From the NCBI GenBank assembly GCA_904501665.1, contig CAJGBT010000001.1, positions 657 to 64,656 of the forward strand: 64,000 nucleotides of DNA, given 5' to 3'. Below the pieces are notes generated by a model. The model ran no database searches. It had not been told where the DNA came from and worked only from the letters and a program-made list of their open reading frames with translations. Numbering within the stretch: the stretch's first letter is position 1; every line of letters begins with the position of its first letter. The translations under genes were made by a program, and so were the position numbers. The stretch is from an uncultured Bacilli bacterium (GTDB lineage Bacteria; Bacillota_I; Bacilli_A; Mycoplasmatales; Mycoplasmoidaceae). Shown in pieces: positions 1-10,937 of the stretch.

Positions 1-2895
1 GTTTTCTCATCTTTATTGGGTGTTTGTGTGTTAACTCCAATTGTTGTTAGTACATTAAACACTACTAATCCAACTATGACATCTGATGTTATCTTGCAAG
101 GCAATAATAAAAATTTAGCAAGAAGTGGAGCTCGATCATTTAATATTAAAAAAAATAATAGTGCTATTAAATATACATATAATAATGCAGTATTAGATCC
201 AGAAGGACAACTACCTGATTTACAACTTATGCTAGGTTCTTTTCCTGATAGAGAAAATATAGTAACTAATGGTACATTGTTTAAACGAGGATATACTTTG
301 CGTATATATCCTGATAATGTAACTAAAAAGATGAAATTAGATACTGTTGGGTATAATGGTTATCCATTAGATAATCCTACTCCATTACCTTTTGGATTTG
401 AATATACACCAGATGGTGATCCAGAGGCTTTTGGCGAATATTTCCGTTTTGGATATTACAATGATGAAAATTGAAATAAAAAGGATGATATTGCCTGAAA
501 AGATTCAGGTGGTAATTATTGATATACAACCAATGAATGAAAACCTGAAGTTGTAAATAATTATAATGGTGCAGTACTTCAAGGGGTTATCCAATTACAA
601 GTTCCAGGTTATTGATTTAGAAATTGGGATGATTCTCCTGAACGTAATTATTGATGAGCTAAAGTTCCTCCTAGTTTAGGTGGGCTTCCTTATAAGAGTG
701 ATGATGACTTAATTCATGCTCGTAATATTCAAGATGGTTTTGATGCAGTTAGATATCGTGACTCTACATATCAATTTGTGGATGATCCTAATAGTGATTG
801 ATATGTTGGTCAATTATCATTAGGTGTTTATGACAATAAGTTTTGAAAAGGAAGCACCAATGAAGATGATAAATCAAAAATTACATGAAGTCTAACTGAT
901 AATATTTCTAGCGTTAACAAATTTCAAGGTACTATGGATGAATTTGTTGATCAATTAACTGCAGATAACTTAAGTAAATATGTATCTATTAATGCCTTTA
1001 ATACTCCTAGTTTTTGTTTAGATGATGCAATTATTAATGCATCAGTTAATCAAAGTGGTGTATTACTTAACATTACTACTTTAAGATCATTTGAACCGAG
1101 TTTAGAACTTAAGTATGATGAACCTAATCGTATTAATGTTTTAAAAAATAAACAATGAATTACAAACAACTCTAAAAGTTTTAGCATAAACATTCCAGCT
1201 AGTTGTTTTACAGGTATTTCTACTAGTACATCTTTAAAAGCAAAAGTAATTGATGTGAATGATGATGAATTTAAAAATATTTTCACTAATTTTTTAGGTA
1301 AAGGTTTTAATATTGATTTTTATCATAATCTTGAATTGGTAAAAAATATCTTAATTACATACATTAACAATAACATTAATTTATTTTTTGTTAACCCTAC
1401 TTTATCTACAAAGGTAAATAATTTAGATTTAACAATAACATCAAATAATAAAATTACTATTAATAATGTATCATTTGTTGGTTATCAATCTAATGGTAAT
1501 ATATCTACTACATTAGAAAGCAAATCTTCTCCTTGAGAAATTGTTAATTTAAAAAACCCACCATCAGATTCAACCATTACTGAAATGGTTAAGAAAGTTA
1601 TGACAACTAAGTTAACAGAAGATGTTAGTAAAGATAAACCAACAATTGTTAATAAAGATCTTCTAGTTGCTCAATTGGTAAGTGTATTAAATGAATTGAA
1701 AGAACCAGGTAGTCCTACTAATTTAGCAAGTGACACATGAGATGGTTTACCACAATCTTACTTACCAAGTGGTGGTATTTTCACTAATTTAAATATTGCA
1801 ATTGATAAAAATCAAATTGTAGTACCTAATAAATTTGATTCTAGCATTTCATCTTATGCTTATAACATCCCAGAATTTCAAATTGGTTTAGCTTCAATTC
1901 CTAAAATAACAATTGCTATTATTAATCCTAATTATTCATTAGACAATGATCAAAATGGTCCAAGCACTGATGATAGTACAACAAGTACAGTTCTAAAAGC
2001 AAAGATACTTGATGTTAATAGCAATGAATTTAAAAGTATTTTTACTAACTTTTTAAGTAGAGGGTTTAACATTGATTTTTATCAAAATATTGAGTTGGTA
2101 AAAAATATCTTAATTTCATATATTAATAACAATATAAATTTATTTTTTAATAACCCAAGTTTATCTACAAGGGTAAATAGTTTGGATTTAACTATAACAT
2201 CAAATGATAAGATTGCTATTAATAATGTATCTTTTATTGGTTTTCAAAATGATGGTAATATCTCTACTACATTAGAAAGTAAAACTTCTCCATGAGAAAT
2301 TGCTAATCTAAAAAATCCTCCATCAAGTACATTAATTGCACAAACAGTTAAAAATGTTATGACTACCAAGTTAACAAATGATGTTAATAGTGATAAACAA
2401 ATGATTACTAGCAATAGTACTTTACTTGAAGAATTAGCAAATGCTCTAAATAGTTTAAAAGATCCAACTAATAATTGGGATGGTTTCCCACAATCATACT
2501 TACCTAATGGTAATATTTTTACTAGTTCAAATATTGCAATTGATAAAACTCAAATCATAGTACCTAATCAATTCAATTCTAGTATTTCAACTTATGTATA
2601 TAATATTCCAGAAATTCAATTAGGTTCAGCTTCGATTCCAAATATAGCAATTGTTATCAAGAATCCAAAATATTCAGAGACAGACCAAAACAATCCAAAT
2701 ACTAATCCCCCAAGCAATGACAATAGTTCAGGTACCAACATTCCTACAACAAATGTAAAAGAACATTCTTCAACAAATAATACACTACCTATTGTACTTG
2801 GAGTTATTGGTGGAATCTTATTATTAATTTTATTGGTGATCTTGATTTCTTTCATTGCTAGAAGACAAAGAAGAGATAGTGATTGATATTATTAA
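1..2895 (+). CDS. Large surface/membrane protein, 5' end lies outside the window. It has a Trp-rich N-terminal region, a 2 x 253-aa internal duplication and a C-terminal TM anchor
   Basis: ORF pieces 16-474, 934-1158, 1255-1536, 2095-2295 and 2359-2886 are all in frame 1 and separated only by TGA. With TGA=Trp the true stop is TAA at 2893-2895. A hydrophobic stretch LPIVLGVIGGILLLILLVILISFI followed by RRQRRD lies at the C-terminus. Confidence 0.7.
1225..2742 (+). repeat. Tandem in-frame duplication, 2 x ~759 bp, diverged, inside the surface-protein gene
   Basis: STSLKAKVIDVNDDEFKNIFTNFLGKGFNIDFY...TLESKSSPWEIVNLKNPP (from 1225) recurs as STVLKAKILDVNSNEFKSIFTNFLSRGFNIDFY...TLESKTSPWEIANLKNPP (from 1984). 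The period is 759 nt. Confidence 0.8.
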
Positions 2896-3269: not shown

Positions 3270-3907
3270 TTAGGAAACAAAATTTTGTAGATCAGTACTT
3301 GCAATATGTCTTGTGCAATTTCTTATTTGATGAATAACACATTTTTGAATATTTACATCTGGGAATACTACTTTAAATGATTCAAAAATAGCTTTTAGAT
3401 TATAACAACAAGCTAATAAAATATCTTGTCTACCACGTGATTTAAGTTCATTAAATATATTCAATCATTGTCTATCTGATTCACTTTCAGCTATTCAAAA
3501 CCCTAATATTTCTTTATATCCATCTATATTTATATCAATTATTATGTATACAGATTTTTCTACATATAAAGATTCTTCTCAACTTTAAATCCAATACCAT
3601 CAACATATACAATAGGATAATTGAATCTAATGGCCTTAGTTGTCATGTTGCAATTTCAGGTAGTATTCTATTAGTAATTCTTGAGATTGTATCTTTATCA
3701 AGATCACAATAAAACATTTGATATAAAGTTTCTTGAATATCTCTAGTAGACATTCCCTTTGAATAAAGAAATAAAATTTGGTCTTCAATTTATTGAATAT
3801 TTCTTTGATACCTTTTTACAATTTTTGGTTCAAAAGTAGAGTTATGATCTCTTGGTACATTAATAGTCACTTTACCATTTGATGTTACTTCGATGAAATT
3901 CTTTTTC
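3270..3907 (-). pseudogene. IS256-family (Mutator-like) transposase remnant, truncated at both ends and carrying an in-frame stop and a frameshift
   Basis: The minus-strand reading gives VTINVPRDHNSTFEPKIVKRYQRNIQ*IEDQILFLYSKGMSTRDIQ, then after a frame change ...DGYKEILGFWIAESESDRQWLNIFNELKSRGRQDILLACCYNLKAIFESFKVVFPDVNIQKCVIHQIRN. These are typical IS256-type motifs. Only about 640 nt remain of the ~1.2 kb expected. Confidence 0.7.
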
Positions 3908-4132
3908 ATTACTATCTTTCATACTCACTCTTTTATTAATTTTAATTTCTAAAAGTGAATTTCTCCAAAATTATCTACAATCCAATTGAAACATTATGAA
4001 TTTTACAAATTTATATAATTTTGTTATAGTTATAAGTATAATATTTAAAATGCTTTTACACATTGTGTTGTTTTTATTGCTATTATATTTCAATAATAAA
4101 ATATTACACATAAGAAAATAAGGAGATAATTA

Positions 4133-5882
4133 ATGAAGTTAAAAAAATTATTACCTTTCCAATTAGGGGGGGGCTTTGACCGTAGCAGCAGCACCTATTA
4201 TTGGTGTAGCTGTTAGTTGTTCGTCAACACCTGCTACTGATTCTTTTAAAGCAAATAGTGGTGTAGTTGGTGATAGTGGTATAAGTACTACTGGATTTAA
4301 AGATGTTGTATCTAAACTAAATCTATCTAATACAACTACATTATCAACATTAACTAATGATTCTCTTAATGATTTATTAAAAGAAACTGATTATAAAGAC
4401 TTGAAATTAGCTATTCAAGATGGATCAAGTGAAGTTACTGGTACCTTAAAATTAAAAGTAACTGGTACATATAATGGCAAAACTTATAATGATGACATCA
4501 CTATTAGTAATTTTCTTCATTTAGGAACATCATCTACTTTTACTGTTAGTGATGTTAAGATTAACAAGGAAGAATGATTTGCTAATGGACAACCTTATAG
4601 TGGTAGTGAAAATCAATTAGGTTCGCTTAATGAAAATCTTGATAAACAATTAATAACATTTAAATTTAATGGAACTGAAATTGATTTTGCAGAACTAAAA
4701 ACAATTGCTAATATTCAAAATGCTAATTGAAAATTAAGTGATGATAAAACTAAAGTAGAAAATATTTCATTTGAATTAACTCCAACTAGTAAACAAAAAG
4801 AATTTAAAGATGGGACATGAAAAGAAGTTAATAATAATCCTAGTAGTTTAACACAGCAAAACCCAGCACAAGTTAATTTACCTATATTTAAAGATTTAAT
4901 GCAAATTGTAATTGATGGTCTTAAAATTAAAAAAGAAACTACATCAAAATTCTATCCATCTTATTTTTATGGATTAGTCAAATTTGCTCTTGGTGGAGAT
5001 AATAATAATGATTCTAATATTAATGAAAATGTATTAGAAGCTGTAATTGAAGGATGTATAGATGATACTGATATTCAAAAATATAATCAATATTCAACTT
5101 TACAAGATATTAAACTAGATTTTTCAAAAAGTAAAGATGCTTACAAAGCAGATGATTTTAATGGTACTTTTGATTTTGATATAACACTAACTTATAATGA
5201 TATAACACTAAATAGAAAATTTAATTCTTCTGATTTTAAGAAAATGGATAGCAGTAAAATTCCTGAAAAAATAACATCTACTATTCAAATTAAAGATAAT
5301 GAAAGCAATTATTTTATTAAACAATTTGCTAATGCAGAATTTAAACCTAATGAAGACAATCCAAATAATGTAATAAGTCAAATAGAAAAAGTTAAATCCG
5401 GAGAGACACTAAGTGATGACGAACAGAGGGATCTTGAAAACAAAACTAATAAAATTAGTAATTCTTTCTTTTCAAATGGAGCAATTTATCCAGTTAGATC
5501 AGAAAAAGAACCTGATGAAGATATAAACAGATATATACCTAGATTAAATGAAAATCTTGATTTTAACATGCTAAATAGTCAAAAGGTAACTTTTGGTCGA
5601 TTTCAAGTAATGGTAAAAGATAAGGGGGTAAGTTTTGATTATGATTCAGGGTTATTTAACTATGATGGAAATGAAGAGAACATTTTTTTAATTAGTTTAA
5701 TTGAATTAAAAGTTAAAGGTGGTGAAGCAAAAGATGTTAAGTTAGAAAAAGTTGATGATGGTGTAAAGCTATCATTTAAGCGAGACATAAACATTGCTTT
5801 TAATAATAAAACTATCACACAAACAACTACTTTTGAAGCAACCATTAAAAACACATTTCCAAAAACCTCAACTAATATATAA
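4133..5882 (+). CDS. Lipoprotein, currently out of frame (phase OFF) because of a G9 tract in the signal-peptide region
   Basis: AGGAG lies upstream of the ATG at 4133. With G9, MKLKKLLPFQLGGG runs into TAG at 4183. A +1 shift gives ...GGGALTVAAAPIIGVAVSC|SSTP, a lipobox, continuous with frame-0 ORFs 4176-4577 and 4899-5882 that are joined by TGA. The stop is TAA at 5880-5882. Confidence 0.75.
4165..4173 (+). repeat. Poly-G homopolymer (G9) inside the lipoprotein signal-peptide coding region
   Basis: Counted directly in ...caatta GGGGGGGGG ctttgacc... Confidence 0.9.
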
Positions 5883-10049: not shown

Positions 10050-10937
10050 ATGAGTTCAAAAACAAAAAAAACAAATAATGAAATAATAAATATTGGAAAA
10101 GATCTTTCTGAATTAAAACAAGAACGAGAATCTTTAAGAGATTATTATCAGGTCTTAAAGGAAAGACGAGAAAGAATAATTGCTTTAAAAAAGATTAAAG
10201 ATAATCACAAGCGACGAGTTGCCATTAAACAAGAAAATGAAGTTCTTGAAAATGTACCATTGCTTTTCCAAAAAGGTGAATTTAAGGGTAAAACAAGTAA
10301 TCTATTAGTTAAATCAAAATTAATGGAAGAAGATGATCAAAAACAATTAAGGCACAAAATCGATAGAACCTTAAATCAAAGTGATCGTCCTATCAATGTC
10401 AATGACTATGCCGGTAAACCATTAGAAGTAAAAGATGTTTCTTCTCGTAAATACGAAACAATTGTCGAACAATTAAATTCAAGAAGAGAAAATTTAACTC
10501 AAACTGTCCCTGATATTGTTGAACCAAAAATTGATTTATCGTCAAATAAAAATGTTCCTCCTCCACCACCTGTTTTGGTTAATAAAAATCTTGCAAACGC
10601 TCCTGCTATTACTCAAAAACAGGTAATTAATACTAATAATCAAACACAACCACAAATAGTACAACCGCAAGATGTAAATTCAACTAATATTATTCAACCT
10701 GAATCTGCATTAATATTAGATCCATATGAAAAGCAAGAATCAAAGTGAGAAATTAGAGAAAATATTCATAAATTGATGCCAAAATATTCTCCATTGTTTG
10801 TAACAATGATTGTAATCTTACTAATTTTACTTATATTATTGTTATTATTATTACTTATTTGGGGATTTGCTAGTGATTGAAGTTTTGGTGATCCAAAAGA
10901 TTTATTTAATGATATTAAAAACTTTTTTCAATTTTAA
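10050..10937 (+). CDS. Hypothetical coiled-coil/Pro-Gln-rich protein with a C-terminal TM anchor
   Basis: ORF 10050-10748 extends through TGA to TAA at 10935-10937. The C-terminal stretch is LFVTMIVILLILLILLLLLLLIWGF. Confidence 0.55.

Follow-up and report, generated by a model that had tools for sequence, protein, structure and literature searches.

A candidate poly-G ON/OFF switch in the signal-peptide coding region of a lipoprotein gene from an uncultured Mycoplasma

In the 64,000-nucleotide stretch of DNA analysed here (the window), an uninterrupted run of eight Gs near the 5' end of a putative lipoprotein gene separates the start codon from the reading frame of the lipoprotein body. We favour, with some reservation, the reading that this is a lipoprotein gene whose ON and OFF states are controlled by slippage, and that it has been caught OFF. 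The tract, lying in the signal-peptide coding region, would gate translation. As assembled, ribosomes starting at ATG 4133 would yield a 27-aa peptide and the lipoprotein would be OFF; slippage to G7 or G10 would put the n-region MKLKK… in one frame with the h-region, lipobox AVSC and body, and the gene would be ON, its product being a pre-lipoprotein that Lgt and LspA could process. Tract length would presumably vary in the population, with ON variants expressed and selected, and the members of a small paralog family with a common 5' module would carry tracts in different states and switch independently.

A G8 tract uncouples the start codon from the lipoprotein body

The features of the locus are listed in Table 1. 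The initial annotation had given ATG 4133 a ribosome-binding site, and a direct reading of the upstream sequence bears this out. A regular-expression count of the tract, which starts 11 codons past this ATG (4133-4135), gives eight Gs, one fewer than the nine that had been reported. With G8, the frame from the ATG encodes MKLKKLLPFQLGGGFDRSSSTYYWCSC and runs for 27 codons. The TAG at 4183-4185, at which this frame had been said to end after 17 codons, lies in a different frame, and the 17-codon peptide (…GGGLWP, then a stop) is the product of a hypothetical G9.

Table 1 Features in and upstream of the lipoprotein gene, in window coordinates
Feature	Position	Strand	Details
Degenerate IS256-family (Transposase_mut) transposase remnants	3273-3918	-	Six-frame reading; PF00872 E 2.8e-25, 1.6e-23
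Promoter-like TTTACA-17 nt-TATAGT (candidate)	4002-4030	+	TG before the -10; ~100 nt upstream of ATG 4133; consensus match 10/12
Shine-Dalgarno-like AAGGAG	4120-4125	+	7-nt spacer to ATG 4133; read directly
OFF-state frame MKLKKLLPFQLGGGFDRSSSTYYWCSC	4133-4216	+	Ends at TAG 4214-4216
Conserved 5' module (signal peptide and about the first 125 mature residues)	4133-4550	+	Identity in 60-column windows
G8 candidate slippage tract	4166-4173	+	Codes Gly-Gly(-Gly) of the signal-peptide h-region
Lipoprotein body frame GGALTVAAAPIIGVAVSC/SS…	4167-5882	+	Lipobox AVSC 4209-4220; Cys 4218-4220; TAA 5880-5882

The body lies in the +1 frame relative to that of ATG 4133, and start and body are uncoupled at G8; the central claim of the initial annotation, that the tract puts the ATG out of register with the long lipoprotein frame, therefore stands. 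When the tract was varied in silico from G5 to G12, full-length products resulted only with G7 (582 aa) and G10 (583 aa), whereas G5, G6, G8, G9, G11 and G12 gave products of 16-28 aa. A length change of one or two units within this range thus toggles between the full-length ORF and an early stop. The fusion, which had been ascribed to one extra G or two fewer, goes the other way and needs one fewer or two more.

Upstream, the body frame is blocked by a TAG at 4164-4166, and it is open from 4167; the long ORF is listed at 4176-5882 and has 568 codons (translation table 4, with three TGA read as Trp). The body is fully open in DNA of 24% GC and has no second lesion, and both the continuation of the frame to its end and the lipobox (...IIGVAVSC/SS) were as first described. 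The current gene call starts at an internal TTG (4176). We rejected this codon as a real start, as it lies 2 nt past the tract, where there is no room for a Shine-Dalgarno sequence, and would yield a signal peptide without a charged n-region. In databases, the gene would be better flagged as a frameshifted, possibly phase-variable lipoprotein than as a 568-aa protein that begins at an internal TTG and has no n-region. The promoter-like site upstream is a candidate by consensus match only, such sites numbering 37 in the region against 29.8 expected.

The fused reading is predicted to be a surface lipoprotein

The fused reading MKLKKLLPFQLGGALTVAAAPIIGVAVSC/SS has a charged n-region, an h-region and a lipobox with its Cys at residue 29, which is the arrangement of Mollicutes-type lipoproteins (n-region, h-region and a lipobox Cys about 20-30 residues in). 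With the NCBIfam signal-peptide model NF045726, it scored 8.9-11.9 bits and the paralog 17.3, both below the cut-off of 19.3. The genome encodes Lgt (PF01790 LGT, 106 bits on contig C9) as well as LspA (PF01252 Peptidase_A8, 36 bits on contig C5), each above its cut-off, so the fused product could be lipidated.

Residues 46-114 of the 568-aa ORF matched Pfam Lipoprotein_17 (PF04200) marginally, at 23.6 bits against a cut-off of 22.4, and a paralog on contig C34 fell just under the same cut-off at 22.0 bits. NCBIfam returned no family above cut-off for the window lipoprotein, and neither Pfam nor NCBIfam gave a Bmp-type (P48/P68) or other family match. An AlphaFold2 model built on a 6-sequence alignment was mediocre (pLDDT 68, pTM 0.48), only its N-terminal domain being confident (~90), and a Foldseek search with this model against the PDB gave no match at E <= 0.001. 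From these data the product is predicted to be a surface lipoprotein of about 580 aa with an N-terminal domain of the Lipoprotein_17 type.

Paralogs share the 5' module and differ at the tract

Three relatives of the window gene were found in its own genome by tblastn. The paralog on C34 is 46% identical and intact; it has the same signal peptide in one frame, with the leader MKLKKFLPFLLGGVLTVAAVAPIVGVAVSC and an interrupted tract site, GGAGGGG. The paralog at C28:10847-11402 (leader MRLKKFLPFLLGG…VVVSC; mature part of 175 residues) is out of frame and carries its tract as a G6 (C28:10879-10884); a G5 also lies inside its ribosome-binding site. Over a 5' module of about 420 nt, the window gene, C34:7022-7440 and the Logan contig L009 (SRR14039601) are 95-100% identical in DNA, whereas downstream of it the window gene is only about 50% identical to C34 and L009. 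The differences inside the module cluster round the tract, where L009 reads GGGGGAG. Logan contigs (k=31) break at the module boundaries, and one of them, L014, starts exactly where the paralogs diverge. The identity of the 5' module against the divergence of the bodies suggests that family members have exchanged modules or undergone gene conversion, and in sharing one 5' module among divergent bodies the family resembles other variable lipoprotein families of mycoplasmas.

The 7-mers of C34 and L009 are in frame and interrupted at different places; together with the uninterrupted 8-mer, they are most simply traced to an ancestral in-frame G7, from which a single slip would separate the window gene. 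A more distant relative (L008, SRR31865319; 39% identity) carries a G10 at the same signal-peptide position, and this tract keeps the frame of the TTG that was called as the start. In four further genomes of the genus, the leaders of the homologs are of the ordinary kind and free of tracts. As a separate observation, a C34-like gene of a related strain, on L009, is interrupted at a T8 run (L009:1250-1275, …AACTTTTTTTTATAA…), leaving products of 404 and 174 aa; the break reflects either a further homopolymer frameshift or a fault of the assembly.

In this genome, both family members with an uninterrupted tract (G8 in the window gene on C1, G6 on C28) are OFF, and only the copy with an interrupted tract is ON, a pattern that also fits the decay of redundant paralogs. 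The window gene could accordingly be a plain pseudogene, in which a +1 insertion in a former G7 (TTA GGG GGG GCT) was recently fixed in a redundant accessory paralog beside a decayed IS256, with occasional revertants of no selected function. We consider this rather unlikely, though several features of the locus speak for it. The C28 paralog is out of frame too with only G6, an intact copy with an interrupted tract exists on C34, and the related L009 gene is broken at its T8 run. The window gene is also confined to its species, lacks a syntenic ortholog and has transposase debris at its flank: the homologs of its relatives do not lie beside glmS, the contig of the sister species stops 228 nt upstream of glmS, and the 1.2 kb that separate the lipoprotein gene from the gene for a 977-aa protein are filled by IS256 remnants broken by frameshifts and stops. 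The 568-codon body, however, has stayed free of a second lesion, although stop-prone AT-rich sequence decays fast.

Two other features of this neighbourhood were recorded. Related IS256 fragments are present on contigs C45, C22, C18 and C23. The large upstream 977-aa protein (window 1-2895, its gene beginning 39 nt before the window) is an orphan: it matched no Pfam family, and a search among 5.8 billion proteins returned only itself at E<=1e-20.

The frame break might also be bridged without any change in the DNA, through constant low expression from G8 by RNA polymerase slippage or by a +1 slip of tRNA-Gly on the ribosome at GGG GGG GG. As can be read directly from the sequence, this slippery run permits perfect re-pairing after a +1 shift. 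Moreover, an out-of-frame P48-like protein of M. agalactiae was detected by MS/MS in the detergent phase, with 'riboshifting' as one possible cause (PMC2824730). We nevertheless hold such recoding to be improbable here, since DNA slippage explains the in-frame and out-of-frame relatives more simply and no stimulatory element is evident; it is in any case compatible with a DNA slippage switch and does not exclude one.

Long G and C runs are rare in the genome and mostly lie near gene starts

The window is contig 1 (C1) of an 854-kb draft genome in 56 contigs, with 24.4% GC and a completeness of 88%. The window contains one G8 against a mean of 0.01 in dinucleotide shuffles. The initial annotation was thus right that such a run is unlikely by chance, albeit for a run of eight rather than nine. 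Genome-wide, two G/C runs of at least 8 were seen against 0.07-0.55 expected under Markov orders 0-3, an enrichment that is moderate by count. GGG makes up 7.3% of the Gly codons of the genome.

The position of the runs says more than their number. The whole genome has ten G/C runs of at least 6, of which four reach at least 7. One of these four is non-coding, and each of the other three falls among the first ~20 codons of an ORF and puts it out of frame. The three at 5' ends are the G8 of the window gene on C1, a G8 in the gene of a small membrane protein on C8, and a C7 run in the gene of an HTH-like protein on C10 (C10:9102-9108). The in-frame G6/C6 runs are found inside a 1671-aa protein, a deformylase-like ORF and others, which are housekeeping or long ORFs; among the housekeeping genes, examples of in-frame G6 are C17:1807-1812 and C48:1578-1583. 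The C8 tract (C8:29471-29478, minus strand), the second G8 of the genome, falls in the N-terminal TM/signal region of a ~120-aa two-TM protein (MNFSGKKMKIIASCLIAGGG/IVTIASAAMLGVG…); this gene lies just upstream of metK, is out of frame and needs +1 or -2.

Two assemblies agree on the tract length

The window contig corresponds to ENA ERZ27234995 k141_487245, a MEGAHIT-style name (k141), and the paralog contig is in NCBI WGS JAEIGA01. An exact look-up of neighbouring proteins (glmS and the upstream gene) led to a second assembly, Logan SRR11528974. Its contig 28457 (L084), which covers the IS remnant and the tract as well as the upstream gene, matches over 4749 bp at 100% identity and likewise has G8; its contig 631 (L014) has a body identical to that of the window gene. 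The tract is therefore G8 in both covering assemblies, the only two; as these probably derive from one and the same sample, their agreement carries no information on length variation. This constancy is also what a plain pseudogene would show.

Agreement between MEGAHIT k141 and Logan argues against an assembler artefact. We thus judge it very improbable that the tract is a sequencing or assembly error concealing a true G7 and an intact gene. The error reading gains something from the nature of the genome, a metagenome-assembled draft in 56 contigs, and from the fact that three of its four out-of-frame tracts are mended by removing one base. Yet the C8 tract needs the opposite correction, and the 452 A/T runs of 8 in the genome do not obviously wreck the gene set, which includes 346 ORFs of at least 300 codons. 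Illumina-type consensus at 8-nt runs is normally reliable, which further counts against an error. A survey of frame switches between adjacent long ORFs at A/T homopolymers, made as a check of assembly quality, was dominated by ordinary gene junctions and was set aside as uninformative.

Searches for a second strain with the fused protein, the family alignment and the upstream 977-aa protein found none among 5.8 billion proteins, only 2-4 distant relatives, and the protein cluster look-up gave single-member clusters. A search of genome contigs with the lipoprotein body returned no related loci, and a scan of metagenome contigs with a 31-nt pattern from the 5' module returned the organism's own paralog contig only. 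A literature search under the run and assembly accessions gave no result. Among named relatives, 'MAG: Mycoplasma sp.' (JAZOSV01) is the closest, with a ValS identity of 89%, and both the gene content and the use of TGA for Trp are as expected of a Mollicute.

Poly-G and poly-C tracts recur across the genus

MutS_V and MutL (DNA_mis_repair) domains were not found in the 88%-complete genome, with controls matched in 11 of 14 genomes; this agrees with the absence of mismatch repair known from Mollicutes. In view of this result, the G run probably slips often during replication. Eight Gs lie at the short end for efficient switching; even so, a G8 without mismatch repair reverts at appreciable frequency, so the gene cannot be stably dead, which weighs against a plain pseudogene.

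By pattern search, G8-G12 runs were detected in 11 of 12 further genomes of the genus, a single genome carrying as many as seven distinct ones. Among 36 tract contexts examined in these sister genomes are a G9 that sits in frame in an N-terminal signal anchor (L053), a G10 located in frame 17 codons past a lipobox (L060), and an A14G10 (L064; G011:C33, the G10 at 10178-10187) that abuts a -10-like TATAAAAT box and the ATG of a lipoprotein-like gene. Mid-gene frameshift tracts occur at L016, L040, L051, L056 and L059. The one at L016 (G004:C45) is a G9 frameshift in a homolog of the C5-MTase-like gene of the C10 island in the window organism's own genome; elsewhere, a G9 lies between tRNA-like sequences (L047, G008:C2).

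A recurrent case is a conserved gene for an HTH-like protein of ~100 aa (…FLIELRK…IEEFI..MGWNNEKYYQQIVNGYKD…), which carries a G:C tract in most genomes of the genus (own copy C10:8797-9130, minus strand; relatives L015, L021, L034/L062, L035, L024, L054, L061 and L037). The tract lies 6-10 codons past the ATG and, depending on the species, reads on the coding strand as poly-C (7-10) or poly-G (11-12). Three loci are in frame and six are out of frame, including the C7 run of the own genome. There, the gene sits between an HNH-endonuclease/MTase-like pair and a defence-type cluster of PAPS-reductase, HATPase_c_3, Z1 and DUF4420. The HTH-like protein may be a phase-variable regulator. Poly-G and poly-C at the same site, in a mixture of ON and OFF states, would mean selection for mutability itself and not for the encoded residues.

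The recurrence of tracts at gene 5' ends in sister genomes indicates a trait of the lineage and not an accident of the window contig. It also speaks against a plain pseudogene, as long tracts recur both at the same site, with the G10 of L008, and at the 5' ends of other surface genes across the genus. A broader reading, which we put forward only tentatively, is that this uncultured Mycoplasma lineage has a genus-wide poly-G/C 'phasome' comparable to that of Campylobacter jejuni, of which the window tract would be one element. It may cover G:C runs of 7-12 at several loci per genome, in genes for lipoproteins with a recombining 5' leader, small membrane proteins, restriction-modification and the HTH-like protein. 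The recurrence of G:C tracts across the genus, including a regulator-like gene by a defence island, outweighs the single locus in importance.

Comparison with known systems

The proposal of a slipped-strand ON/OFF switch in the initial annotation keeps its main idea, which fits the indirect evidence above and the published mycoplasma precedent; its tract length, stop and restoring direction were each off by one base. The nearest precedents come from two mycoplasma species. In M. agalactiae 5632, the P48-like gene (MAGa1620) has a G10 in its 5' coding sequence and regains its signal peptide with the lipobox when one G is lost (Nouvel et al. 2010, PMC2824730). For M. bovis p68, the same article relates, citing Lysnyansky et al. 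2008 (pmid 18194339), a poly-G that ranges from 8 to 10 over four strains, the full-length protein being made at G9. It further describes the M. agalactiae spma family, which has poly-G of up to G13 in the 5' untranslated region with an effect that is unknown, and several G8/G9 and C8/C9 strain differences that agree with MS/MS detection (PMC2824730), a point taken up again in PMC3053259.

The window gene resembles P48-like and p68 in that a poly-G in the 5' coding sequence of a mycoplasma lipoprotein gene, in an AT-rich genome where such tracts are rare, joins or separates the signal peptide with its lipobox and the body through a change of one base. In contrast, the protein families are unrelated, as the window protein has no P48/basic membrane protein homology and has an N-terminal domain of the Lipoprotein_17 type, and the window tract is shorter, lies inside the h-region and codes for Gly-Gly. 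Length variation between strains is documented for P68, whereas the window tract is G8 in both assemblies, probably from one sample. With spma, the window gene shares the organization as a multigene lipoprotein family with a conserved leader and a poly-G whose length differs per member; the spma tract, however, is in the 5' untranslated region, while the window tract is in the coding sequence and would act via the reading frame.

Other homopolymers are known at mycoplasma surface genes, namely poly-A in the 5' coding region of M. hominis vaa and M. fermentans p78 and in the promoter of M. hyorhinis vlp. These systems share with the window gene the principle of homopolymer slippage for ON/OFF control of surface lipoproteins and differ from it in having A instead of G and, for vlp, in the promoter position of the tract. 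Outside the mycoplasmas, Campylobacter jejuni has poly-G contingency loci, and Neisseria pilC has a poly-G in the signal-peptide coding region, the same placement as in the window gene. In C. jejuni, too, G runs of at least 8 are rare in an AT-rich genome and mark several loci, mostly of surface structures and restriction-modification, in mixed ON and OFF states. C. jejuni and Neisseria belong to other phyla, the gene families are different, and switching rates and phenotypes were measured there.

The switch mechanism is thus already known in mycoplasmas, and here it appears in an unrelated lipoprotein family of an uncultured species. If real, it would mean that an uncultured Mycoplasma varies its surface lipoproteins by poly-G slippage at several loci, as is thought for M. 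agalactiae and M. bovis.
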